From a virus: 64,000 nucleotides of DNA. The notes under the pieces are model-generated. The model was not told where the DNA came from. It did not search any database and saw only the letters and a program-made list of their open reading frames with translations. Of this stretch, positions 5,251 to 58,613 are shown one piece after another. The stretch covers positions 32,001 through 96,000 of IMG/VR virus record IMGVR_UViG_3300025168_000039; one strand, given 5' to 3'. Position numbers and translations under genes: made by a program. The number at the start of each line of letters is the position of its first letter. Within the stretch, counting starts at the first letter, position 1.

Positions 5251-6912
5251 ATGAGTGTAGTTCTTGACATAGAAACAGATGCTATTGATGCAACAAAAAT
5301 TCATTGTATTGTTGCTTATGATATTGAAAGTAAAAAGCCATATACCTTTGTAGGAGATGAGTGTTACATTAAGTTTCCTAATTTTGCTAAAAGTGTGTCG
5401 CAATTTGTGATGCATAATGGTATATCTTTTGATGCTCCTGTACTTAACAGGCTTACCGGAACTGACATTCAATATGATAGGATCATAGACACAATGATCT
5501 TATCACAACTTTATAATCCAATAATAGATAACGGTCATAGCTTAAAATCTTGGGGCGTTAGATTAGGAATCCATAAAGGTGAGGTTGAAAGCTTCAGTAA
5601 TTTCTCTGAAGATATGCTGGACTATTGTAAACAAGATGTTAATGTAACATACTCTTTATATAAATATTTTAAACAACAACAAAATATATTCTCTGCTAGA
5701 TCAATTCAACTTGAGCATAAGATAAAAAGTATTATTGATGAGCAGGAGCGTAATGGGTTTTATTTAGACTTACAAAAGTCTACTACGTTTGTGTCCTCTG
5801 TTGAAGATAAGATGGACACCATTGAGAATGAATTACAAAATATATTTCCACCCCATGTCATCTCTGGCAGAACACATAAAAGATCAGGCAAACCTCTTGC
5901 TGATATTGTAACTCCATTTAATCCTGCATCTCGAAAGCAAATAGCAGATAGATTACAAGGGCTTGGATGGAAGCCAGAAAAGAAAACAGACAAAGGAAAT
6001 ATAATTGTAGATGAGGCAGTCTTAGAGACAATTGATTTGCCAGAGGCAAAGAAAATATCTGAATACCTTTTGTTAGGTAAGAGATACTCTCAAGTTAAAT
6101 CTTGGATCGAAGCTTCTGATTCTTCAAGTAGAGTTCATGGGAGAGTTCTAACTCTCAGGACTGTTACAGGTAGGATGGCTCACACCTCTCCAAACATGGC
6201 TCAAGTTCCCGCTGTTTATTCTCCTATGGGGAAGGAGTGTCGAGGAATGTGGGGCGTATCTGATCCTGATAATTATTCCCTAATAGGTACAGACGCATCA
6301 GGTCTAGAGCTTAGAGGTCTAGCACATATGATGGATGATCCTATCTTTATTAAAGAAATATTAGAAGGTGATGTACATACAGCCAACCAGAAGATGGCCG
6401 GTCTTGATAATAGAGATCAGGCGAAAACATTTATCTATGCATTAATGTATGGAGCAGGTGCTGCAAAGATTGGTAAAATTGTAGGTGGCACCGCAAGAGA
6501 GGGAGAGGAATTAATATCTAAGTTTATGAAAAATATGCCTAAGTTTTCCTCTCTTAAAAATAATTTAAATCAAACTGTAGAAAAGAATGGAGTCATACCT
6601 GGACTAGATGGTAGAACCCTACAGGTTCGATCTCCTCATGCTGCTTTAAATACTTTAATACAGGGAGCTGGTGCTGTTATATGTAAGCAGTGGCTTGTTC
6701 AGATTAATGAGGCATACAAAAGAAAAGGACTAGATGTAAAACTTGTAGCTAGTATTCACGATGAGTACCAATTTGAGGTACACAATAAAGACTGTGAAGA
6801 GTTCGGTAAGATAACTAAAACTGCAATAAAGGAGGTAGAAGAAATATATTCGTTTAGATGTCCATTAGATTCCGAATATAAAGTTGGAAAAAACTGGGCT
6901 GATACACATTAA
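5251..6912 (+). CDS. polA: T7-like family A DNA polymerase (Tyr762 type)
   Basis: ExoI DIETD, HNGISFD, DASGLELR (motif A), AKTFIYALMYG (motif B), IHDEYQ (motif C). Confidence 0.96.
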   Translation: MSVVLDIETDAIDATKIHCIVAYDIESKKPYTFVGDECYIKFPNFAKSVSQFVMHNGISFDAPVLNRLTGTDIQYDRIIDTMILSQLYNPIIDNGHSLKSWGVRLGIHKGEVESFSNFSEDMLDYCKQDVNVTYSLYKYFKQQQNIFSARSIQLEHKIKSIIDEQERNGFYLDLQKSTTFVSSVEDKMDTIENELQNIFPPHVISGRTHKRSGKPLADIVTPFNPASRKQIADRLQGLGWKPEKKTDKGNIIVDEAVLETIDLPEAKKISEYLLLGKRYSQVKSWIEASDSSSRVHGRVLTLRTVTGRMAHTSPNMAQVPAVYSPMGKECRGMWGVSDPDNYSLIGTDASGLELRGLAHMMDDPIFIKEILEGDVHTANQKMAGLDNRDQAKTFIYALMYGAGAAKIGKIVGGTAREGEELISKFMKNMPKFSSLKNNLNQTVEKNGVIPGLDGRTLQVRSPHAALNTLIQGAGAVICKQWLVQINEAYKRKGLDVKLVASIHDEYQFEVHNKDCEEFGKITKTAIKEVEEIYSFRCPLDSEYKVGKNWADTH

Positions 6913-11395: not shown

Positions 11396-11545
11396 ATGGC
11401 GGCTAGAAAGTCAATTGGACTATCAACAAAGGTAAATACAACCAGACATATGAGAACTTCTATCGGTTCTTCCACTAATTCAAGACCTAAAAATAAAAAT
11501 ACAAAAAGATTACATGGTAAAAAATACAGGGGGCAGGGAATATGA
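11396..11545 (+). CDS. 49-aa basic protein ending KKYRGQG (not in ORF track)
   Basis: AGGAG RBS; MAARKSIGLS...KKYRGQGI; stop overlaps the next ATG. Confidence 0.7.
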   Translation: MAARKSIGLSTKVNTTRHMRTSIGSSTNSRPKNKNTKRLHGKKYRGQGI

Positions 11546-12339
11546 ATGACATTCCAACAGTTTATATTGGCTACGATAAAAAAGAAGATGATGCTTTTCA
11601 AATTTTAAAAGAATCAATTATTGATACCTCTTCCCAACCTGTTAGAGTAGTCCCTTTAGATCAAGAAACATTACGGCGTATTAATTTATATCGTAGATCA
11701 TTTCAAATTCAAAAAACTGATAACGGTTCTGTTAAAATTGATTGGCAAGATAATAAACCTTTTTCAACTGAGTTCTCTTTCACAAGATTTTTAATTCCAT
11801 TTGTTAATAATCTAAAAGGACTTGCTCTTTTTATGGATTCTGATATGATGGTACGGACTGACATAATGGAAGTCTTTAAGTATGCTTCTAGAGAAGACAA
11901 AGCCGTCTGGTGTGTCAAGCATAACTACAATCCATCAGATGATTATAAAATGGATAATCAAGTTCAGACTAGATACAATCGAAAGAATTGGTCTAGCTTT
12001 GTGCTATGGAATTGTGAGCATGAAGCCCACAAAGATTTAACAATTGACGATGTTAATTTAAAGTCAGGTTATTATTTACATAACTTTCAGTGGTTATCGG
12101 ATGATCTAATTGGAGATATCCCTGAAGAATGGAACTGGTTAGATGGTCATTCTCCAGAAGAGATAGAAGCAAAGAACGTACACTTCACTACTGGTGGACC
12201 TTGGTTTCCTAAGTGGAAACCTAAGAGATCAATCGATGCTAAGTATGCATTAGAGTGGACTAACTTTAGAGATTCTCTTTCAATAGAAGAGGTGTTAGGA
12301 AAAACAAAAACAATGAAGTGGAATAAAACTTATGAGTAA
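11542..12339 (+). CDS. GT-A fold glycosyltransferase (GT8-like)
   Basis: VYIGYD, STEFSFTRFL, FMDSDM (DxD), RKNWSS, EWNWL, HFTTGGPW. Confidence 0.85.
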   Translation: MNDIPTVYIGYDKKEDDAFQILKESIIDTSSQPVRVVPLDQETLRRINLYRRSFQIQKTDNGSVKIDWQDNKPFSTEFSFTRFLIPFVNNLKGLALFMDSDMMVRTDIMEVFKYASREDKAVWCVKHNYNPSDDYKMDNQVQTRYNRKNWSSFVLWNCEHEAHKDLTIDDVNLKSGYYLHNFQWLSDDLIGDIPEEWNWLDGHSPEEIEAKNVHFTTGGPWFPKWKPKRSIDAKYALEWTNFRDSLSIEEVLGKTKTMKWNKTYE

Positions 12340-14656
12340 CAAAAATAAAGTGACGGTGGTAACATCCTTTTCGGAGGATGGCTGGGAAACCTATGCCGAG
12401 AGAATGATTAAGTCTGCTGCAAAATATTGGGAACCGTCCATCAAGCTTGTTGCTTACTACCATGACTTTGATATTAATTCTAAAGACATACCAGAGTGTG
12501 ACCATATTGAGTTTAGAAATTTAAATGATCTAGAAGAACTACACCAATTCAGAAATACCTACAAAGATTTTAATGGTACAGGTAAGGATAGTCAGGGTTA
12601 TAACTGGCGTATGGATGGTATTAAGTTTAGTCATAAAGTATTTGCTATTGCTGACTGTGCGTTTAATTTAAAGAGCGATAGTGACGAGGCAGAGGGTGAT
12701 CATGATCCTGGCTGGTTAGTATGGATGGATGCTGATACGGTTACAGAAAAAAATCTATCAAAGAAAGCCCTTCTTAAATCCTTACCAGAGAAAGTTAATC
12801 TAGTACATCTAGGAAGAAAACATTTTACCTATAGTGAAACTTCTTTTATTGGTTTTAATTTAAATAGCGACACAGCTCTAGAATTTATTGGTGACTTTAT
12901 TGGCGCTTATCTAACAGGAGAAGTTTTTAATTATAGAGAATGGCATGACGGGTTTCTGTTTGAACGACTTTTAATTATCTATAAAGCTCATGGCTTAAAG
13001 TTCCATGATTGGACCGGATCAAAAGATATAAAGTCACAAGTAAAAGGTGAACAAGCCTTTGATTTATTTCCTCTTAGTAGTTATGTAAAACATTTTAAAG
13101 GTAGTAGAAAGAAAGCTTCTTCTCAAGGCGTAGCCCCAGATGTTAATGGACCTCAAAGATATGCTAAGTTAATTGAATTAGTAGAGCTTTACCAACCTAG
13201 TACTATTGCTGAAACAGGTACATGGAACGGTGGTCGAGCTATTCAAATGTCAGAGGCTGCATTTAAATCTTCATATGAAGTAACTTATTATGGTTATGAT
13301 CTCTTTGAGGATGCTACCACAGAGATCGATGAGAAAGAACTGAACAGCAAACAACATAATTTTTTCGCTGCAGTAAACGCAAGACTTAAAGAGTATCAAG
13401 AGAACTGTAAAAATGCTGGTCGTAAGTTTAACTTCGAATTGTTTAAGGGAGATACAAAAGATACACTTCAAGAAAAGAAAGTTGACTTTGCTTACATCGA
13501 TGGGGGTCACTCTGAAGAAACTGTAACCCATGATTATGAGATGTTAAAAGAAAGTAAGGTTGTTGTCTTCGATGATTATATTTCCAAAGATGAAAAAGGA
13601 AATGATCCAGGCAAAGAATTTTATGGTGTTAATAAACTGATCGAAAAGATTGATCACCGAAAGAAAGTGTTACCATCTGCTGATAGAATTATCGAAGGAG
13701 GTATCACTCACCTAGCTGTAGTTCTAACGGATGATACCCTTGAAGATATTCCAGAAACTCTTGGCCGATCACCTATTATTGTACAGCCTAGAGATTGTAT
13801 GCCTAAAGAAGACATTCTTAAAAATGTTAAAAAGAATACTTCTGTTATTGATACATGGGTTACAAAAGCAAAGCCTCATTCAGAAGTTGCTATTATTATT
13901 TCTGGTGGAGGCAGCACTGATTGGAAAGAGGTAAAACGTACAATTAGAAAGGTCGGAAAGAAAAGAGCTAAAGTTATTTGTGTTAAGCATTCTTATCCAG
14001 AGTTATTGAAAAATGACATTAAACCTTTTGGATGTGTCATTCTAGACCCTCGTCCAATTACAGGAACAAGTACTCATGGAGTTGTCCGAAAAGATTTGTT
14101 TAAAAAGATTGATGATAGTACTTTATTTATGGCAGCATCTATGACTGATCCTTCTGTTATAGACTTACTGCGAAAGAAAACAAAAAACATTGTAGGGTGG
14201 CATGCATATACCAACGCACTACAAGAAAATATTAAAGATCAAGTTAAGAACGATGCCGTAAAAATTGACGAGAAGTTAGGTATCAAAGAAGGAGCTACGA
14301 TGATTATCGGTGGTACTTGTGCAGCCATGCGATCAATTGGCATCATGCATACTCTAGGCTTTAGAGAGTTCCATCTCTTTGGATATGACTGTTCCTTTCC
14401 TGAACCTTCTAAAAAAGAACAGAAAGAAACAACGGATGAGGGTAAGCCAAAGTATCTAAAGGTAGGTGTAGGGAATGAGAGCTTCTGGACTACCGGAGAA
14501 CTCCTGGCAATGGCACAAGACTGCGAGAAGTTATTCGAGAAGGAAGATGTAAACCTTAGTATAAACTTTCATGGAACTGGTACACTTGTTTCTAAGCTCT
14601 GGGAAATATCTGATACTCATAAGTTACGCACATACAAAGAGGTTCTTTCTTTATAA
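12332..14656 (+). CDS. Three-domain fusion: GT-like + class I SAM methyltransferase + Maf/DUF115-like domain
   Basis: VVTSF...KFSHKV...WMDAD; ETGTWNG...YGYDLF...YIDGGHS...VVFDDY; IISGGGS...GFREFHLFGYDCS. Confidence 0.75.
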   Translation: MSNKNKVTVVTSFSEDGWETYAERMIKSAAKYWEPSIKLVAYYHDFDINSKDIPECDHIEFRNLNDLEELHQFRNTYKDFNGTGKDSQGYNWRMDGIKFSHKVFAIADCAFNLKSDSDEAEGDHDPGWLVWMDADTVTEKNLSKKALLKSLPEKVNLVHLGRKHFTYSETSFIGFNLNSDTALEFIGDFIGAYLTGEVFNYREWHDGFLFERLLIIYKAHGLKFHDWTGSKDIKSQVKGEQAFDLFPLSSYVKHFKGSRKKASSQGVAPDVNGPQRYAKLIELVELYQPSTIAETGTWNGGRAIQMSEAAFKSSYEVTYYGYDLFEDATTEIDEKELNSKQHNFFAAVNARLKEYQENCKNAGRKFNFELFKGDTKDTLQEKKVDFAYIDGGHSEETVTHDYEMLKESKVVVFDDYISKDEKGNDPGKEFYGVNKLIEKIDHRKKVLPSADRIIEGGITHLAVVLTDDTLEDIPETLGRSPIIVQPRDCMPKEDILKNVKKNTSVIDTWVTKAKPHSEVAIIISGGGSTDWKEVKRTIRKVGKKRAKVICVKHSYPELLKNDIKPFGCVILDPRPITGTSTHGVVRKDLFKKIDDSTLFMAASMTDPSVIDLLRKKTKNIVGWHAYTNALQENIKDQVKNDAVKIDEKLGIKEGATMIIGGTCAAMRSIGIMHTLGFREFHLFGYDCSFPEPSKKEQKETTDEGKPKYLKVGVGNESFWTTGELLAMAQDCEKLFEKEDVNLSINFHGTGTLVSKLWEISDTHKLRTYKEVLSL

Positions 14657-28857: not shown

Positions 28858-29196
28858 TTATATTCCTTTTTCATTCTCTAAAACTATTGTGTAAACTTCT
28901 ATACCTCCAAGAAGTAAAACCTTTCTAAGACTAAAAAGTCTTCCTTGTGTGTCTACAAAATTATTATACATTGTATTTGTTATTCCTGGAATAGGTTCTT
29001 CGTTAAATACACACTCACCTTCTATAAGATATTTTCTAAGAACATAGTGATAATCTTCTTCTGATACTGTTTGTGATTCTGCTATTGATACAATAGCTTC
29101 TTCAGAACGACAAAAATTCCAAATTAAAACATCATGATGTGCATTAGCAACAGAAGTTGTTAAGAATACCATTAAAAAAATTATATATTTTATCAT
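28858..29196 (-). CDS. Hypothetical exported protein
   Basis: Signal-peptide-like MIKYIIFLMVFLTTSVANA. Confidence 0.55.
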   Translation of the reverse strand: MIKYIIFLMVFLTTSVANAHHDVLIWNFCRSEEAIVSIAESQTVSEEDYHYVLRKYLIEGECVFNEEPIPGITNTMYNNFVDTQGRLFSLRKVLLLGGIEVYTIVLENEKGI

Positions 29197-29212
29197 TGTA
29201 ATCAGCTTTATA

Positions 29213-30919
29213 TTAGTTAATAAACTTTTGTAAAGAATCTCCATATTTATCTTTAAGTAGACTAGTATTAGTAGAAGTATCTCCTGCGTAAATAATATTA
29301 TTTTTATTATCTATTCCTAAAGAATGACCCCATCTAACTTTTAATGAACCAATTTTTAGTTTATTGTCTCTATAATCTTCATCAGATGTATAATCATATA
29401 TATAATCTTTTGCCGTAAACTTATAGCTTTTCAATGTATCTTTAAGTTTTTTATCAGGATTCATTACAGACCACTTTTGAAAATTATCTGTTCTAAAGAA
29501 ATGACGAACATTATTAATATTATTACTATTTTTAACCATAGCTAATGAACGATAAGATACTTCTTCCCATTTTAAATTAAAATTCCACCACCAAAATAAA
29601 TCTTTAATAGACGATATTGTATATGGACATTTAGAATTAAACAATTTGATATCCTCAATATCATTAGGATATTTATTTTTAATAAACTCATCTACTGTCA
29701 TTTTTAATATTTCAGGATGAGATATAAATCCTGATGATCCAAAAAGTTGATCACCACATTCTCCTGTAATTGTTAAACCTTTATTTAAATTATCCGCAAT
29801 ATGTCTTATAACTGGAGAATAAAAAGGTTTATCCATATAATATTTATTAGCATCTCTCTCTGTCATTAAGACTTCTTCTGTTTGAATTTTATCTTTAATA
29901 TAATTATTCCAAAATAAAGGATACTCTTCAATAGAATTTAAAGTATAGATAATTTTTAATTTATCATGCCAATCAGAAGGTTTACTTTTTAGTAAACTTA
30001 CCAGAGCTACTGTACTATCTATTCCTCCGCTCCAATATACTTTTAATTCTTTATCTTCATTCCAAAGCTCTACACCTTTTTCATCTGCTACTTCTGCAAA
30101 GGATTTTGTAAATCCTGTTGCATCAGGTATAGGACTTGCTTCTAATTTTAAGTTACTTGTTAAAGTATTTGTTCTATCATTTGGAGTCCAAAGACAATGA
30201 ATAGCTTCTCCGATTAAATCTAGTGTTGTTTTTTTATATTCTCCTGATCCAACTCTTAAAAAATCTGGACGAGCAATAATAAGTTTATCACCTAATATAT
30301 CTGTTGACTTATCTACTGAAGATGTATTTTCAAAATTAAATATACTTGTAAATTTATCTAAAACTTTAATGCTACAATCAATATCTAAATAATTAAACAC
30401 ATTTCTAATTTGTCCTACACCTACGGCAGTATGTAAAAGAACTGAACATTCTACACATTCCTCTTCAGGCACAGGATTAATAAATATATCTTGATCATTC
30501 AATATGTCTACACAAGTTTGCGGGTCAGAAGCATTTAAAATTTCTTGTCTTTTAGTTTTATATAATTCTTCAACAAATAATCTAGATGCATTTTTTTTAA
30601 ACTGATCTAATGCATCAGTAGCTTTATCTTCTACTGTATCTCCTAAAATAGTAGTCGCTTGATCTTTAGTTATTTCTGATCGAAGAAACTGTTCAACTTG
30701 TGTCATGCTCTTAGGCTCTGGAAAATACCAATTTATATTTCTTACATATTGATCATCAAATCTTTCTAACACAACTTTTTTAACAGTCGCTAAATCTTTC
30801 CACTGCTCTTCAAAAGCTGTCTTAGCTTCATTAAGAACCATAACTTTTAAACCAATATCAGAAGGTGACTTGTCACTTCCTGGTAAAGGATTGTCCCTTT
30901 TTTTTAATACTAGACTCAT
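29213..30919 (-). CDS. Asparagine-synthetase-like ATP pyrophosphatase (no glutaminase domain) with an unknown N-terminal domain
   Basis: PP-loop VYWSGGIDST and ITGECGDQLFGS. Confidence 0.75.
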   Translation of the reverse strand: MSLVLKKRDNPLPGSDKSPSDIGLKVMVLNEAKTAFEEQWKDLATVKKVVLERFDDQYVRNINWYFPEPKSMTQVEQFLRSEITKDQATTILGDTVEDKATDALDQFKKNASRLFVEELYKTKRQEILNASDPQTCVDILNDQDIFINPVPEEECVECSVLLHTAVGVGQIRNVFNYLDIDCSIKVLDKFTSIFNFENTSSVDKSTDILGDKLIIARPDFLRVGSGEYKKTTLDLIGEAIHCLWTPNDRTNTLTSNLKLEASPIPDATGFTKSFAEVADEKGVELWNEDKELKVYWSGGIDSTVALVSLLKSKPSDWHDKLKIIYTLNSIEEYPLFWNNYIKDKIQTEEVLMTERDANKYYMDKPFYSPVIRHIADNLNKGLTITGECGDQLFGSSGFISHPEILKMTVDEFIKNKYPNDIEDIKLFNSKCPYTISSIKDLFWWWNFNLKWEEVSYRSLAMVKNSNNINNVRHFFRTDNFQKWSVMNPDKKLKDTLKSYKFTAKDYIYDYTSDEDYRDNKLKIGSLKVRWGHSLGIDNKNNIIYAGDTSTNTSLLKDKYGDSLQKFIN

Positions 30920-31045
30920 TTTGTAAAACTTTCTTCCAGTTGATGAAGTTGAACTATTACTCTAACCTGTTCTGTAGAATATGCAAAACAACCATAAAAG
31001 GCAAAACACAAACCTAAAACTTTAAACGTATTTATTATATATTTT

Positions 31046-31630
31046 TTATACTGCATGAGTTCCTAACATCATAGGATGGTTAAACTCGTCATTAGTACTA
31101 GACCATATATGCATTGGAACAACAATTAAATCTTGGTTATCTGTTTCAAAGTGATGTGGCTCCATAGCATCTAAGATTAAAGTTTTTCCTTCAATTAATT
31201 TATGTTTCTCTGTATTAGAACCTACACCTGAAACTGCTGTACCGCTTCCTGATAAAACATATACCACTCTATCTGTCGAATGAATATGATGTTTTTGTTC
31301 TGAACATCCGGCGGGTATCTTTAATAGTTGCATACAAGGATCACCAGATCGAATTGGAGGTAAAATATTGTTAGTGCTGCATCCATTAATATATGGTAGA
31401 TAAGTGTTTAAATTAATTTCAGCAGTTCTGTTTGGTGGTATATACCCGTATATAGTAATAATAACTCTACCAAAACATACGCCCCAATTTTTGACTGATA
31501 CACTTTCTTTATTTATAATCCATGCTGAACTATTTTTAGGTATTTTATATTCGTTTCCTGAAGTATCTACTTCGTAGTAGTATAAACTATTTTGTTTTGG
31601 AATGTAACTACGATTATTTAAAAATAACAT
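31046..31630 (-). CDS. Cupin-domain protein
   Basis: HHIHSTDRVVYVLSGSG and G..L.L....PHHFET metal-binding motifs. Confidence 0.8.
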   Translation of the reverse strand: MLFLNNRSYIPKQNSLYYYEVDTSGNEYKIPKNSSAWIINKESVSVKNWGVCFGRVIITIYGYIPPNRTAEINLNTYLPYINGCSTNNILPPIRSGDPCMQLLKIPAGCSEQKHHIHSTDRVVYVLSGSGTAVSGVGSNTEKHKLIEGKTLILDAMEPHHFETDNQDLIVVPMHIWSSTNDEFNHPMMLGTHAV

Positions 31631-32386
31631 CTATGATGTAGCTCCAAAAACATTTCCACTATTTGTTACATTTACTGTTGCACCTGAATTTAATCTAACT
31701 GCTTTTCCTGCTGCTCCTCCTGATCCACCTGAGCCAGCGACTCTACAGTTTGCATTTCCACCAGGACCACTACCACCAGCGCCGCCATTACCTACATTAC
31801 CCCAAGTTCCCCCAGTTCCTCCTGTTGAGGCTCCACCTGAAGAACCACTAGTTGCACTATTTGTGGGAGGATCATTAATACTTGCACCAGCACCTCCATT
31901 ACCTCCTGTTAAATTAGTGCAATCACTACAACTCTGCGCTTCAGAATCATAGGTAGTACAACTACGGTAGCCACCACCACCACCGCCGCCTCCACCACCG
32001 CCAGCAATGTTTGCACCAGAATTATTTCTAACACTTGCTGAAATATTTTCTAAGCTAATTGCATCTCCACCGTCTCCAGCAGCACCGCCATTACTACCAC
32101 TACCACCACCACCACCTGCACTACCTCCTCTACCAATAATATTACCATTATTAATTAAAGTAAAATTACTACCGGCAACAAGATGAGCAGTTAAAGCTGG
32201 TACATTACTAAGCTGACTAAAAACATTTACACCACTATTAACAATAACTGTTGCATCAATAGGGTCTATACCGTTCCAATCGTAACTACCTTGCAACACA
32301 TTAGACAGATTATAATTTTCTGTATCTGAAGATATAATTAATGATTGACCTGTAGGTCTTCTGTTTGCAAAAAATAAAAATGGCAT
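31631..32386 (-). CDS. Polyglycine adhesin, T-even gp38-like
   Basis: LINNGNIIGRGG...GGDAI...NN.GANIAGGGGGGGGGG...GAAGKAV...N.GNVFG. Confidence 0.72.
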   Translation of the reverse strand: MPFLFFANRRPTGQSLIISSDTENYNLSNVLQGSYDWNGIDPIDATVIVNSGVNVFSQLSNVPALTAHLVAGSNFTLINNGNIIGRGGSAGGGGGSGSNGGAAGDGGDAISLENISASVRNNSGANIAGGGGGGGGGGGYRSCTTYDSEAQSCSDCTNLTGGNGGAGASINDPPTNSATSGSSGGASTGGTGGTWGNVGNGGAGGSGPGGNANCRVAGSGGSGGAAGKAVRLNSGATVNVTNSGNVFGATS

Positions 32387-32400
32387 TAATTAATTCCTAT

Positions 32401-33183
32401 TTAACTTGTAGCCCCGAAAACATTTCCAGAATTATTAAAAGTATTAGTCGCACCTGAGCCAACATTAATCGCTTTACCCGCTGCTCCTCCAGCACCACCT
32501 GCCTGATTTGTTTTACAGGATGCTGGGTTCGATGCAGAACCTGCTGCACCTGCTGATCCTGTAGCCCCCCAACCGCCACCAGCACCGCCCGTACCGCCTG
32601 TACCGCCTCCTGAACCACCTGAAGAACCATTTGTCGGTGTATTGGTAGCAGGAGTATCAGAACTTGCTCCTATCCCACCGTTACCACCAGTAAAACTTGA
32701 TTGACCACTACATGCGCCAGTTTCTTCATTGTGACTTCCTGCGCCTCGACCACCGCCGCCTCCTCCGCCGCCACCGCCTCCTCCAGCAATATTAGCTCCT
32801 GAAGCATTATTAATTATTCCAGTTAGATTACTCAATTCTATAGCGTTACCACCAGCCGCACCTGCGGCACCAGCCGCATTAGCACCACCACCAGTACCTT
32901 GTACTCCACCATGAGCAGCTATAGTTCCTGAGTTATTTATAGTTAGATTACTACCGGATACTAATATGGCTGCAATAGCAGGTGTAGAGGCTACAGATGC
33001 TCTAATGTTTACACCTGAATTAATATTGAGTATAACATCAATAGCAGTAGACCCATCCCAACTATAATTATTTGTAAGGTCATTAGCTAAATTATAATTA
33101 GTTGCATTAGAAGAAAGTGTAATAACAGTTCCGCTAGAAAATACTGTAGTACCACCTTGAACTATAGGTAGTGGAAAAGTCAT
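32401..33183 (-). CDS. Polyglycine adhesin, gp38-like (paralog)
   Basis: Same architecture and identical C-terminus NSGNVFGATS. Confidence 0.72.
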   Translation of the reverse strand: MTFPLPIVQGGTTVFSSGTVITLSSNATNYNLANDLTNNYSWDGSTAIDVILNINSGVNIRASVASTPAIAAILVSGSNLTINNSGTIAAHGGVQGTGGGANAAGAAGAAGGNAIELSNLTGIINNASGANIAGGGGGGGGGGGGRGAGSHNEETGACSGQSSFTGGNGGIGASSDTPATNTPTNGSSGGSGGGTGGTGGAGGGWGATGSAGAAGSASNPASCKTNQAGGAGGAAGKAINVGSGATNTFNNSGNVFGATS

Positions 33184-33184
33184 G

Positions 33185-35059
33185 TTACTGTAATGCCTTT
33201 ACGGTTAGCATTGAAAATGTAGTTGAACCATCATTTATTCTTGTAATATAGAAAAAGAACTCATGTCCATTTGTAGTTGTTAAACTATCTCCATCTGTAA
33301 CAGTATAACCAGAAGTAGTTATAGTTCCTGCACTTCCATTATTTTTATATAAAATTATCATTGTACAGTTTTTAGCAGGAACAGCTAATGTATGTGCGCC
33401 ACCATTAATTGCATGTTGGAAGTTTCCGTCGTCAACATCAGGTGTATAAGTGCCGCTAGACTTTGTACCTGCACTATGAGCAGCAGCACTAAAGCCAGCG
33501 GTTAATTCATCCGCCTCATCTGCTTTTAAAATATCAGCATTAAAAGCTTCAACATTACTTCCAATTGCTACTCCAAGATTTGTTCTAGCCGTACTAGCAT
33601 TATTTAAATCTGAAAGGTTACTAGCAATAACTAATCTAGTTCCAATACTTGTTGCTAGTGTTGCAGATAAGGCTACCGCAAAGTTACTAACAGAAGTTAT
33701 ACGAGTATTAGCTGTTCCAATGCTGGTTGCAAGGGTGGCAGAAAGATTTGTAATAACTGTATTGACAGATGTTATAGCTCCTGTTCTATTATTAATACTT
33801 GTAGCCAGAGTTGCAGACAGTGCAACTGCATAATCACTAACAGAAGTTATACGAGTGTTTGCAGTTCCAATGCTTGTAGCAAGAGCAGCAGATACAGTAG
33901 CTAATTGTGAAGGTGTTACAAAACCTGAACCATTTCCAACAACACCATTAATAGAAGTAATAGCAGCAGTTCTATTTCCAATACTGGTAGCCATTGTAGC
34001 TGAAAGAGCTACTGCATAATCACTAACAGAAGTTATACGAGTGTTTGCAGTTCCTATACTAGTAGCCATTGTAGCTGAAAGAGCTACTGCATAATCACTT
34101 ACAGATGTTATGCGAGTATTAGCTGTTCCTATACTAGTAGCCATTGTAGCTGAGAGAGCAACTGCAAAGTCACTAACAGATGTTATTCTTGTATTAGCTG
34201 TAGCAATACTAGTGGCTAAAGCAGCAGATACGGTTGCTAGTTCTGCACTGGTAGCATAATTTCCACCATCACCTATAATAGAATTAATACTTGTGATAGC
34301 ATTAAGATTAGTTTTTGTAAGAGCAGATACAGCAGCAACTTCTGTTACATTTGCGGCTGATACTCCTGCCATTAATAGTTCGTCAGAATCAATATTAGTA
34401 GCACTTAAAATTCCAAAGACTGCGGAGCCTGTTGCTACAAAAGCAGTACTAACAGAAACTGTACCAAAGTTTTGATTGGCAGAGACAGCCACAACACCAC
34501 TAACAGGAATAGAACTAGATACAGCACCACCTACAGTCATTTTAATACCTGTACCAGCGTCTACTCGTTTCATAGTACCACCTTCTGCTGATGGAACATT
34601 TATTAGATTACGTCCATCTCCTACAAAAAATGCAGCAGAAACAATTCCTGTAATCGTTGCTGCAGATGCAGAAACTTTAGCAACATGAATTGTAGTACCA
34701 GATAGGCTAACAGCAAAAGTTGGATTACCTTCTGTACCATTTGCATTTGTAATTGCAATACCTGCTCCGGCAGTTAGTGTTCTACCTAAAGCATTACCGC
34801 CACTAACTGCAACAATACCTGTTATACCTGTAAGATCAGTAATAGCATTAATAGCTGATGCATTAGCTGTAATCGCTTGACCATTAAGTTTAAATGTTCC
34901 ATTAACATCTACAGCACTCTTACTTAACTTTAAAGCTGAGTTTTCTCCTGATCCATCTTGAACATATTGTTCTGTCGAGGTTAAACCATCATTACCTGAT
35001 CCAACTTGCAGGAGTTGTTTATATGTGTTTGCAATTAAATTTCCAGTAAGTGTACTCAT
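33185..35059 (-). CDS. Tail fibre with ~22-aa coiled-coil repeats
   Basis: Repeats TSIGTANTRITSVSD(Y/F)AVALSAT; NLSDLNNASTARTNLG. Confidence 0.8.
   Translation of the reverse strand: MSTLTGNLIANTYKQLLQVGSGNDGLTSTEQYVQDGSGENSALKLSKSAVDVNGTFKLNGQAITANASAINAITDLTGITGIVAVSGGNALGRTLTAGAGIAITNANGTEGNPTFAVSLSGTTIHVAKVSASAATITGIVSAAFFVGDGRNLINVPSAEGGTMKRVDAGTGIKMTVGGAVSSSIPVSGVVAVSANQNFGTVSVSTAFVATGSAVFGILSATNIDSDELLMAGVSAANVTEVAAVSALTKTNLNAITSINSIIGDGGNYATSAELATVSAALATSIATANTRITSVSDFAVALSATMATSIGTANTRITSVSDYAVALSATMATSIGTANTRITSVSDYAVALSATMATSIGNRTAAITSINGVVGNGSGFVTPSQLATVSAALATSIGTANTRITSVSDYAVALSATLATSINNRTGAITSVNTVITNLSATLATSIGTANTRITSVSNFAVALSATLATSIGTRLVIASNLSDLNNASTARTNLGVAIGSNVEAFNADILKADEADELTAGFSAAAHSAGTKSSGTYTPDVDDGNFQHAINGGAHTLAVPAKNCTMIILYKNNGSAGTITTSGYTVTDGDSLTTTNGHEFFFYITRINDGSTTFSMLTVKALQ
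33646..34215 (-). repeat. ~66-bp degenerate tandem repeats in the tail fibre
   Basis: Recurrent ACTAACAGAAGTTATACGAGT... units encoding the 22-aa repeat. Confidence 0.8.
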
Positions 35060-35337
35060 TAAACCTGATTCCATTCAGTTGTTTCATTTTCCCATTCAGT
35101 ACCCGCTGCTTGCCAAGCAATATTTCTATCATTATTAGATGGGGGTCTGGGATTACGAAGTGTTTCGTCATCTCTTACATTAGGTGTTTTATTTTGTGGA
35201 TGGTTTTTTAAATCATACTGACCTTCCCAATCAGTTGGACAAACCATCATTCCATAACTATTCTTTTTTAATACTCTAAGAGGATATTGAAATCCACAAG
35301 TATCGCAAATTGCTTTAGCATTTTTATTTGTTGCCAT
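35059..35337 (-). CDS. Conserved small virion-associated protein with CxxC
   Basis: AICDTCGF...VCP...HPQN..P. Confidence 0.7.
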   Translation of the reverse strand: MATNKNAKAICDTCGFQYPLRVLKKNSYGMMVCPTDWEGQYDLKNHPQNKTPNVRDDETLRNPRPPSNNDRNIAWQAAGTEWENETTEWNQV

Positions 35338-55646: not shown

Positions 55647-56207
55647 ATGAAAACATACAAAGTCTATGATAGTGCTATAGAAAAAGAACATTGTAATAAT
55701 ATAATTAAGTTTATAAAAGATTTAGATTTAAATAACTCAAAAATAAACGAGGGTGAGGGTGATGTTGTTAACGAAGAAAAGCGGCAATCCCAAACTGCTT
55801 TTTTAAATTCAAAAGAATTTGTAGATATTTTTAGTTTGTATACTGGCTTTGCTAAAGAAGAATGTATGTGGAATTATAATATAACTAATTATGATACACC
55901 TCAAGTAAGTATATATTCTAAGAATGATAAGTACACTTGGCACCATGACATGCTTCCTGATAGTGATGGACTTGTACGCAAGTTGAGTGTATGTATAACC
56001 TTAAATGATAATTTTAAGGGAGGAGACTTTCAGATACAGAAATTTGTTTCTCCAGTTGAGAAGAAAAGATTTACTACAGTAAAAGAGATGCGAAATGCAG
56101 GGAGCATTATTGTGTTTCCTTCTTTTATGTGGCATCAAATAACTCCAGTTAAGTACGGCGACAGATATTCTATTGTCTGTTGGTACAAAGGACCACAATT
56201 TATGTGA
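55647..56207 (+). CDS. 2OG-Fe(II) oxygenase (prolyl-4-hydroxylase-like)
   Basis: Y.WHHD, RKLS, F.GGDF, VFPSF..H..TPV..G.RYSIV.W. Confidence 0.9.
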   Translation: MKTYKVYDSAIEKEHCNNIIKFIKDLDLNNSKINEGEGDVVNEEKRQSQTAFLNSKEFVDIFSLYTGFAKEECMWNYNITNYDTPQVSIYSKNDKYTWHHDMLPDSDGLVRKLSVCITLNDNFKGGDFQIQKFVSPVEKKRFTTVKEMRNAGSIIVFPSFMWHQITPVKYGDRYSIVCWYKGPQFM

Positions 56208-56571
56208 GGGATTATGTTACAGTCATTAAAAAATATTACTAAGGATATTAAATTAAAAGAAAAAGAGTTAAGTGGACGACCTGTTGGGATATTCTTATCA
56301 TCAGCAAAGAGTTCGGAGCTATTTAACGAACTAAATAAAATAGATGAGCGGTTAGAACAGGACTTAATCTATTATAGAAAAACAATTATAGATATATTAG
56401 ATGATGTTAATTCTATTAAGTTTTTAAATTTAAATCAGGAACGGTCCTTACATAAAGTAGCAACACAATTAAATGTTTTGTTTGACGAAATAACTGCATC
56501 GCAGGATTCATAAAATGGATGACTTAGATATTTTAAAAAGAAATGTACTTGAGTTGAATACACAATTATTT
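56081..56571 (+). repeat. Right copy of 491-bp direct repeat
   Basis: Matches 1357-1847 with one mismatch. Confidence 0.97.
56214..56513 (+). CDS. Duplicate of 1490-1789 (N>H change)
   Basis: Lies within the repeat. Confidence 0.7.
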   Translation: MLQSLKNITKDIKLKEKELSGRPVGIFLSSAKSSELFNELNKIDERLEQDLIYYRKTIIDILDDVNSIKFLNLNQERSLHKVATQLNVLFDEITASQDS

Positions 56572-56888: not shown

Positions 56889-58613
56889 ATGGAAGTTGTC
56901 TTAGACATTGAGACTGATGGCTTAGATGCAACAGAAATATTCTGTATCGTAGCCAAGGAACGTGAGTCAGGTAAGATACATGTCTGGAAAGAGCAACAAT
57001 GTTATGAAACATTTCCTTTGTTCGCAAAGCGTGTGTCTAAATTCATCATGCACAACGGCATATCTTTTGACGCCTATGTTCTTAACAACCTTACTTCAGT
57101 TGATATTGATATAGATCGTATTGAGGATACTCTAATCTTATCCCAGCTTACATCTCCTGTAAGAGATGGCGGTCATTCCCTGGAATCTTGGGGGCAAAGG
57201 TTAGGCTTCGATAAGATAGACTTCCATGACTTCTCTTGTCTCACTCAAGAGATGGTGGACTATTGTATTCGAGATGTAGAACTTACCGAGAGAGTTTACA
57301 TTGCGCTTCAGACAGACGTGAAGTCTATTCGGAGACAGTGTATAGATTTAGAATACGAAGTTAGGAAGTTAGTTTCTCAACAAGAGAGGAACGGCTTCAC
57401 CTTGGATATGCAAAAGGCTACTTGTCTTGTTGCTAAATTAAAAGATCAATCAGATCAAATTGAAAAAGATGTTACAGATATGTTCCCGCCTATACCTGTA
57501 CTTGTCAGGGAAGTCATACCTAAAATTAAAAAAGATGGTAGCTTATCTACGGTTGGGCTAAGACACATAGAAGATATATCTACTGTGGGTGGTGTTCACT
57601 CTGCTATCGACTATCAAGAATTTAACCTGTCTTCCAGGCAACAGATAGTTAAAAGACTTTTATCTAAAGGTTGGAAGCCTAAGAAGTTTACAGAGAAAGG
57701 TCATCCGATTGTTGATGAGGGTGTGCTGAAGGATGTAGATTTACCTGAAGCAAAAAAGATAGCAGAGTTTCTCATGCTTCGTAAAAGGATAGCACAGATA
57801 CAATCGTGGATAGATGCTGTTAAAGATGATGGAAAGGTACATGGACAAGTTCTTACGCTACGTGCAATCTCTGGAAGAATGGCGCATCATTCTCCGAATA
57901 TGGCGCAGGTTCCAGCTAGTTACTCACCGTATGGTAAGGAATGCAGAGAATGCTGGACTGCTGGGGATTCACCTAGTCTTGTACTTGTTGGCTGTGATGC
58001 TTCTTCTTTGGAACTACGTGCGCTGGCACATTATTTAAACGATAGTAAGTTCACCAGTGATGTTGTTGATGGTGACATACACACCGCCAACCAACATGCG
58101 GCAGGGTTAGAGACACGCGATCAAGCTAAGACATTTATCTATGCGTTTATCTATGGTGCAGGGGCAGCTAAAATCGGCTCTGTGGTAGGCGGTACAGCAC
58201 AAGATGGTCAGAGACTAATAGATACCTTCTTGTCTAACGTGCCAGCCTTGGCAACGCTTAGAGCGAAAGTAGATGCTGCCTCTAACAGAGGATATCTTAT
58301 CGGTTTGGATGGTAGGAAACTCATGGTGAGGAACAAACACTCGGCAGTAAATCTTTTAGTACAAGGTGCGGGTGCAGTAATATGTAAGCAATGGTTAGTT
58401 GACATACATGATTCACTCTCCTACACTGAAATGAAGGCGCGTCTTGTTGCGTCAATACATGATGAATACCAACATGAAATTAATAAAGATCAGGCTGAAG
58501 AATTTGGAGAGCTAACCAAATTGGCTATGAGAAAAACTCAAGAAAGGTTAGGTATCAAATGCCCACTGGACAGCGAATACAAAGTCGGCCACAACTGGTC
58601 ACTGACGCATTAA
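56889..58613 (+). CDS. polA: T7-like family A DNA polymerase (outer phage)
   Basis: DIETDG, DASSLELR, AKTFIYAFIYG, IHDEYQ. Confidence 0.96.
   Translation: MEVVLDIETDGLDATEIFCIVAKERESGKIHVWKEQQCYETFPLFAKRVSKFIMHNGISFDAYVLNNLTSVDIDIDRIEDTLILSQLTSPVRDGGHSLESWGQRLGFDKIDFHDFSCLTQEMVDYCIRDVELTERVYIALQTDVKSIRRQCIDLEYEVRKLVSQQERNGFTLDMQKATCLVAKLKDQSDQIEKDVTDMFPPIPVLVREVIPKIKKDGSLSTVGLRHIEDISTVGGVHSAIDYQEFNLSSRQQIVKRLLSKGWKPKKFTEKGHPIVDEGVLKDVDLPEAKKIAEFLMLRKRIAQIQSWIDAVKDDGKVHGQVLTLRAISGRMAHHSPNMAQVPASYSPYGKECRECWTAGDSPSLVLVGCDASSLELRALAHYLNDSKFTSDVVDGDIHTANQHAAGLETRDQAKTFIYAFIYGAGAAKIGSVVGGTAQDGQRLIDTFLSNVPALATLRAKVDAASNRGYLIGLDGRKLMVRNKHSAVNLLVQGAGAVICKQWLVDIHDSLSYTEMKARLVASIHDEYQHEINKDQAEEFGELTKLAMRKTQERLGIKCPLDSEYKVGHNWSLTH

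Follow-up and report, generated by a model that had tools for sequence, protein, structure and literature searches.

The stretch of viral DNA described here, hereafter the window, comprises 64,000 nucleotides (positions 32,001 to 96,000) of the IMG/VR virus record IMGVR_UViG_3300025168_000039, and derives from an uncultured marine phage genome with a GC content of about 36% across the window. Its minus strand carries a late structural block in which a tail fibre gene is followed by genes for two glycine-rich proteins, GlyA and GlyB, a cupin, a PP-loop ligase, and a small protein with a signal-peptide-like N-terminus, in that order (Table 1). The subject of this analysis is the ligase and cupin and their connection with the glycine-rich proteins. 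The original prediction held that the four tightly packed open reading frames (ORFs) downstream of the fibre comprise two paralogous gp38-like adhesins, a cupin and a glutaminase-less Asn-synthetase-like ligase, and that the enzymes may modify loops of the adhesins by isopeptide cyclisation, amidation, hydroxylation or epimerisation. All four ORFs were found at the expected coordinates and on the minus strand, and every loop and enzyme motif that had been quoted is present in the translations. The fibre and GlyA genes are separated by 1 nt, GlyA and GlyB by 14 nt, GlyB and the cupin by 0 nt, and the cupin and ligase by 126 nt. A scan of 28.7–35.5 kb gave zero terminator-like sites and no excess of promoters; the block from fibre to ligase looks like one late transcription unit.

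Table 1. Genes and protein domains of the fibre, adhesin and ligase region (positions are those of the window)
Feature	Position	Strand	Basis
Tail fibre, 629 aa, Ala/Ser/Thr-rich	33185-35074	minus	ORF, tandem repeats, C-terminal homology
GlyA, gp38-family Gly-rich adhesin, 260 aa	32401-33183	minus	ORF; phrog_10745, phrog_11439
GlyB, paralogous gp38-family adhesin, 251 aa, four Cys	31631-32386	minus	ORF; phrog_2056 'tail fiber; host specificity'
Bicupin, 194 aa	31046-31630	minus	Pfam Cupin_2, AlphaFold 2 (AF2) model
PP-loop ligase, 568 aa, whole gene	29213-30919	minus	ORF, motifs, model
Ligase N-terminal domain, residues 1-214, helical	30278-30919	minus	model secondary structure, alignment
Ligase catalytic core, residues 215-568	29213-30277	minus	motifs, AsnB-type synthetase fold
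Small protein, signal-peptide-like N-terminus, two conserved Cys	28858-29244	minus	ORF; family v8 in 14 loci

The product of the first gene had zero Pfam or PHROG matches. It is called fibre-like on account of its position, its 25-amino-acid tandem repeats (3.2 copies of a 75-nt repeat at 33949–34213) and the homology of its C-terminus in related cassettes. This C-terminus is 44–64% identical in distant cassettes and in a sister genome described below, and its final ~125–260 residues move with the adhesin cassette.

GlyA and GlyB each contain 25% glycine, with longest glycine runs of 12 and 11 residues, respectively, and GlyA has two cysteines, Cys158 and Cys223, in its loops. They are 46% identical (E 8e-24), and are therefore paralogues. 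Individually neither reached the threshold of Pfam GP38 (PF05268), GlyB scoring E 0.098 and GlyA remaining unmatched. Since 14 of the 19 aligned family members match GP38 (best E 1.8e-9) and both proteins match PHROG tail fibre/host-specificity families, the expected designation of gp38-like is valid at the level of the family. As with T-even gp38 (the S16/T2-type tip adhesins), glycine-rich motifs alternate with variable loops in the family alignment, the genes lie directly 3' of the fibre gene, and the proteins appear to be hypervariable in populations. They differ from T-even gp38 in residing in a podovirus-type marine phage, in being two tandem paralogues and in having a conserved inter-loop Cys pair; no enzyme partner of classical gp38 was found in the literature. 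Searches of GlyA against cultured phages (tblastn) revealed no relatives, GlyA had no useful matches among PDB sequences, and the gp38 profile found no gp38 structure there.

Several further observations concern the adhesin slot in related loci, which carry L numbers here. GlyB is missing in L007, L008 and L018. In L001 and L002 its place (L001:6185-7315) is taken by a highly divergent second ligase paralogue of 376 amino acids, in which SGGFDS is present and the GE-G-DQ-F motif is missing; it clusters with an additional ligase-like gene of L028 and L029 (L029:6637-7902). Thirteen metagenomic contigs stop within the gp38-like gene or at most 200 nt after it (L165, L168–L170, L173, L176, L177, L179, L183, L186, L188, L191 and L193), which suggests hypervariability of the adhesin at the population level. 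GlyA begins with the docking-type motif MTFPLPIVQGG, and two unrelated classes of Gly-rich adhesin (L239:7421-8293 in the sister genome; 33154–33183 in the window) have in common an N-terminal M-[ST]-[LF]-x-P-I-V-Q-G-G, which probably serves to dock the adhesin to the conserved tip of the fibre.

The ligase possesses SGGIDS at residues 297–302, invariant across 74 family sequences, and TGECGDQLFGS at residues 384–395 (GECGDQLF at 386), in which E387, D390, Q391, F393 and G394 vary little or not at all. The corresponding second signature of AsnB-type enzymes, around the catalytic Glu, is (S/T)GEG-D-E/Q-x-FGG. By profile the protein falls below the Pfam Asn_synthase (PF00733) gathering score (13.7 versus 21 bits), as do ten short-form homologues; PHROG and NCBIfam, the sugar-amidotransferase models of the latter included, gave no above-threshold match, no GATase match was found in Pfam, and neither the ligase nor the cupin had useful matches among PDB sequences. 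In the predicted structure (pLDDT 93.2), residues 215–525 superimpose on human asparagine synthetase (ASNS) with Z 15.0 over 217 amino acids (root mean square deviation 3.8; VIA), followed by beta-lactam synthetase (13.8), TsnB9 (13.5), AsnB (11.4) and the carbapenam synthetase CarA (11.3); other PP-loop enzymes (LarE, GMPS, NADS and TilS) reach Z 9.1 at most. Foldseek also puts AsnB-type families first, at a weak E of ~1e-2, and identity to the AsnB-type structural matches is 10–14%. Residues 1–214 are helical in the model, and hence do not form an N-terminal nucleophile (Ntn) glutaminase domain; they include a conserved C155-x-x-C158 and C182. The model thus shows, as had been proposed, a glutaminase-less enzyme with an AsnB-type synthetase fold.

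With the synthetase domains of human ASNS, E. coli AsnB, beta-lactam synthetase, carbapenam synthetase and TsnB9 the ligase has in common the fold, SGGxDS and GE-G-D-x-F-G, which imply carboxylate adenylation and amide formation. We infer that it adenylates a carboxylate and then forms an amide bond with an amine from a source other than glutamine. It is set apart from these relatives by the helical, lineage-specific N-terminus in place of the Ntn glutaminase and by a Trp/Lys-rich C-terminal subdomain of the core, and much of its family by an obligate association with a bicupin. Lasso-peptide cyclases (McjC-type AsnB homologues) form isopeptide bonds by adenylating an Asp or Glu side chain in their polypeptide substrate, and are a precedent for an AsnB-fold enzyme that acts on a peptide. 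The candidate substrate here differs from those of lasso systems in being a folded structural protein of 250 amino acids, and no lasso-type leader protease, RRE protein or short precursor peptide was found among the cassette neighbours (ORFs, Pfam, PHROG).

The cupin exceeds the Pfam Cupin_2 threshold (28.2 versus 27.2 bits), in keeping with the original prediction, and its AF2 model (pLDDT 90.5) is a bicupin with a predicted degenerate N-terminal barrel and a putatively metal-binding C-terminal barrel bearing an HxH...H site. Y80, C84, Q112, H115, H117, R121, H159, H174 and H185 are invariant in the family alignment. The model matches many functionally diverse cupins about equally well (VIA Z 12–14.6). 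The DUF861/YlbA/(S)-ureidoglycine aminohydrolase bicupins (Z 14.6–13.5) possess the same two-barrel layout, with HxH...H in the C-terminal barrel, but unrelated cupins score equally (Z 12–14), and the phage protein is distinguished by the extra invariant Cys84, His174 and His185 and by its specific linkage to the ligase.

For comparison of loci we examined the best 80 of >554 viral hits to the ligase and the best 80 of 169 bacterial ones; ORFs in related loci were called by a longest-ORF rule, with Gly-rich genes checked by tblastn. The viral scan for gp38-like genes used N-terminal segments; the full Gly-rich alignment was dominated by low-complexity patterns. Full-length ligases (~560–630 amino acids) were found only in marine viral contigs, while hundreds of short ligases of ~350 amino acids match the C-terminal core only. 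By hidden Markov model (HMM) search the N-terminal domain, which defines the long form, was confined to 33 loci. In each long-form locus with upstream sequence a gp38-like gene lies 0–2 genes upstream, down to 36–42% ligase identity and, conversely, the ligase is present in 22 of the 23 loci of this gp38 subfamily that have at least 3 kb of downstream sequence.

These genes are exchanged between backbones. In L001 and L002 the C-terminus of the fibre (93%), GlyA, the cupin and the ligase are 93–98% identical to the window on a different backbone, the flanks being only 36–47% identical; in L005 and L012 the backbone is 96–98% identical and the cassette 83–94%. By these identities, cassette and backbone have separate histories. 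At 40% ligase identity nothing but the fibre tip, the gp38-like gene, the ligase and one distant DUF932 gene (5–6 kb away, in two of three contigs) is common to the window, and the downstream genes are not the same. A sister genome within the 107-kb record is a natural control: its structural protein is 62% identical, its layout is the same, its fibre C-terminus is 64% identical and the small secreted protein is kept, but the adhesin slot holds a different Gly-rich protein, with only the N-terminal docking-type motif common to GlyA, and neither cupin nor ligase is present. A gp38-like gene also stands 1–3 genes upstream of the ligase on two other deep viral branches (L064 with L079, and L037), whose backbones have nothing else in common with the window. 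As judged from these comparisons of gene content, the fibre tip, one or more gp38-like genes, an optional cupin and the ligase are shown to behave, in this lineage, as a mobile receptor-binding cassette that is inherited, exchanged and lost as a unit.

Outside this lineage the ligase family is large, with 1,674 clusters at 50% identity in an exhaustive profile search (E up to 1e-10). It has no Pfam model and appears in the protein atlas only as viral 'hypothetical' clusters. Among cultured phages, searches with the locus and the ligase (tblastn, megablast) gave no useful matches, and a short-form query gave a single one, to an 'MnmA' of a Pseudomonas phage at 24% identity; the family is all but missing from this group. 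The 80 bacterial loci belong to Bacteroidota, Acidobacteriota, Chloroflexota, Planctomycetota, Verrucomicrobiota, Alphaproteobacteria and the candidate phyla radiation (CPR). In 44–46 of them the ligase gene is adjoined or overlapped by a same-strand gene homologous to the phage cupin. Two operon layouts include, in addition, a lineage-specific third small protein that could be a partner or a substrate. This protein is either the soluble c3 (L081–L100), of 127 amino acids, which overlaps the ligase start, or the membrane-anchored c2 (L104–L138), of 164 amino acids with an N-terminal membrane helix; both are without a Pfam family. Gly-rich neighbours and glycan genes were not found in the bacterial loci, and the other flanks are unconserved. 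The idea that the N-terminal domain of the long ligase is a fused copy of c2 or c3 was rejected, the proteins being unrelated by hmmsearch and hhalign; the domain HMM matched only the 33 long-form loci. c2, c3 and the small phage ORF at 28858–29244 are also mutually unrelated. In five Hyphomicrobiaceae-like loci (L118, L128, L141, L152 and L153) a ligase of 415–476 amino acids, without a cupin, adjoins a GidA/TrmFO-like flavoenzyme, which may be lineage synteny or hint at an RNA-related role.

Marine protists encode proteins of 1,100–1,800 amino acids (P0122–P0141) that combine an N-terminus of unassigned type, the ligase core, one or two S-adenosylmethionine (SAM) methyltransferases and a bicupin which matches the phage/bacterial cupin profile end to end (E 1e-39 to 1e-62). 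That the two are fused argues strongly for a common pathway of ligase and cupin, here in organisms that have no phage adhesins, and the set of domains hints at a methylation step in that pathway. Together, the bacterial operons and protist fusions show the ligase and bicupin to be a functional pair. In uncultured T4-like contigs a short ligase, often with a cupin, is located amid neck, sheath-stabiliser, small and large terminase and sheath genes. Some of these contigs carry diverged ligase paralogues in tandem, two to five per array and at times together with a single cupin (five in L071; three each in L048, L050 and L063; also L061/L062 and L053), which look like a multi-enzyme or biosynthetic set. 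Membership of a defence system was also considered and dropped: eight proteins (ligase, cupin and bacterial partners) had no match to a defence system in PADLOC.

A FastTree phylogeny, the only tree computed, of 151 ligase cores places all long forms in one clade (support 100), with the bacteria (98), the protist fusions (99) and the T4-context group (98) in separate clades. Long branches and an unresolved polytomy characterise the viral portion of the tree, and for this reason the ligase-gp38 linkage may or may not have a single ancient origin.

Beyond the small protein, the block continues with a second fibre-like protein, a virion structural protein (phrog_3287) and an internal protein with a lysozyme domain. 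The nearest cultured relatives of the phage are DSL-LC04 and pelagiphages of the HTVC023P/HTVC027P type, at ~32–34% identity for a virion structural protein. The small protein itself overlaps the ligase stop by 32 nt, or else begins at the internal Met17; it is kept in relatives and in the sister genome that has neither ligase nor cupin, and is a neighbour that lies outside the cassette. A direct repeat of 491 bp, 99.8% identical, occurs at 1357–1847 and 56081–56571 and bounds a unit of ~54.7 kb. The window also contains two DNA pol A genes (5251–6912 and 56889–58613; 51% identical) and two primase-helicases. From the repeat and these duplications, the 107-kb record consists of two related phage genomes, joined or nested. 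At 11542–14656 a 265-amino-acid protein is followed by one of 774 amino acids, in which a SAM-methyltransferase domain is combined with an MptE-like (Maf/DUF115-type) one. The two may serve protein glycosylation in this phage, the fibre of which is Ser/Thr-rich. The larger protein is 77% identical in one related contig, the related contigs being fragments.

The leading reading of the locus, a candidate to which we give somewhat less than an even chance, is that the cassette ligase tailors the adhesin. The invariant core pocket would bind a small substrate common to the whole ligase family, and, late in assembly, the lineage-specific N-terminal domain would aim the enzyme at the adhesin or the tip of the fibre. 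The adhesin would then leave the cell bearing an amide-linked modification or cross-link, and the role of the cupin would be an auxiliary reaction on the substrate of the ligase. In its general form the proposal is rather doubtful: phages of several lineages might mature their receptor-binding adhesin by means of an AsnB-fold ligase from the ligase-bicupin family, aimed by its N-terminal domain, which would install an amide-linked group or cross-link on the gp38-type tip. Literature searches turned up neither a phage in which ligase and cupin are paired nor a gp38-type adhesin that is matured enzymatically. The view that the enzymes belong with the adhesins gains from the inheritance of the cassette as a unit and from the gp38 adjacency on two other deep branches, but most of the family is without adhesin linkage and the core is the same either way. 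The gene-neighbourhood survey, set beforehand as a test, revealed co-occurrence in this lineage, but for most of the family the homologous ligases are unlinked to adhesins, an outcome that had been named beforehand as refuting the idea.

A number of results weigh against adhesin tailoring. When the cores of 19 long and 55 short forms were compared, 45 positions were conserved and identical and none was conserved but different, so that the ligand of the core pocket should be the same in phages, bacteria and protists; an unchanged core fits one common substrate better than a protein peculiar to phages. Homologous ligases had no adhesin linkage in the 80 bacterial loci, the terminase setting of T4-like phages or the protist fusions, 39 more distant gp38-like loci have neither ligase nor cupin within 6 kb, and many adhesin-linked cassettes are without the cupin. 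Co-inheritance of ligase and adhesin could be hitch-hiking, much of the synteny being phylogenetically non-independent. Among the features of the adhesins, moreover, none tracks with the presence of the ligase in the alignments. The Cys-containing acidic loops, which the original prediction had singled out as possible targets, are conserved only inside the podophage subfamily, in a manner consistent with a structural pair of cysteines. The ligase-linked gp38-like proteins of L064 and L079 have no such loops, which rules the loops out as a universal target. An invariant Lys and the C-terminal tail G-x-[IVT]-[ST] occur family-wide, including in gp38-like proteins without a ligase. The Lys, K237 ('AAGKAI'), was considered as a ligase-linked site and discarded, since several gp38-like proteins with no ligase in reach also have it; in the ligase-less L198 the position is Tyr.

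Much of this evidence serves equally an explanation which we regard as a serious possibility, though of lower probability than adhesin tailoring, namely that the ligase and bicupin act on a non-adhesin substrate (a small metabolite or a component of the host envelope) that is the same in bacteria, protists and phages, and that the cassette is simply a late-expressed recombination hot spot in which they travel. The pair is self-contained in bacteria, amid variable flanks and with no Gly-rich neighbours found, it is fused to methyltransferases in protists, and in T4-like phages it lies between the small and large terminase genes; the tandem ligase arrays resemble a biosynthetic set; and the identical core pocket in all contexts, like the failure to find adhesin residues that track with the ligase, is what such a passenger would give. 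What it leaves unexplained is the lineage-specific N-terminal domain, the complete two-way co-occurrence of gp38 and ligase over 36–98% identity, the loss of both enzymes where the adhesin class has been swapped in the sister genome, and the recurring gp38 adjacency on other branches of the ligase tree. That the long form is mainly an assembly chaperone for the fibre or adhesin, with an enzyme fold kept without any need for catalysis, would suit a gene placed after the adhesins, the usual position of tail-fibre assembly proteins, but none of the catalytic-core residues varies among the long forms, a sign of selection for enzymatic activity that makes this very improbable.

In some pathways for O-antigen and nonulosonic acids, sugar acids are the substrates of AsnB-like amidotransferases, and here the ligase might amidate a carboxylate on a glycan put on the Ser/Thr-rich fibre or adhesin by a phage glycosyltransferase together with Maf-like enzymes. 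The 774-amino-acid methyltransferase and MptE/Maf-like protein of the window, found also in a relative, would be in keeping with this, but the glycosylation genes lie 15 kb away on the opposite strand, the NCBIfam sugar-amidotransferase models are unmatched and the bacterial cassettes are without glycan genes; we consider it improbable. We put the least belief in DNA hypermodification. Its precedent is CmoY from Synechococcus phage S-B43, an AsnB-like amide ligase without a glutaminase domain, by which glycine is attached to the 5-carboxymethylcytosine of DNA (PMC12783734). CmoY and our ligase are both phage-encoded, glutaminase-less, AsnB-like ATP-dependent amide ligases for an amine other than ammonia (inferred in our case). 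The similarity of the family to CmoY is, however, limited to 21 residues at the PP-loop (hhalign, probability 17%), the 107-kb record has neither a C5-cytosine methyltransferase (PF00145; CmoX-type) nor a homologue of CmoA (carboxy-S-adenosylmethionine (Cx-SAM) synthase), and the ligase gene is in the fibre module, away from the replication genes, whereas CmoY is part of a DNA-modification cluster. A CmoY-type modification is not supported.

Receptor-binding proteins are assumed to be functional as translated, and both host-range prediction and phage design use sequence alone. If adhesin tailoring is true, it would add a post-translational layer to host recognition, one which moves with the adhesin gene when cassettes are exchanged; and were the ligase a necessary companion of the adhesin, some of the recognition surface would be made by an enzyme and could not be read from the adhesin gene. 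Independently of the adhesin reading, the ligase-bicupin family is sizeable, with members in bacteria, in marine protists and in many phages that are uncultured. Given the neighbouring gene for a candidate protein substrate, this locus is one of the more tractable places in which to learn the chemistry of that family.

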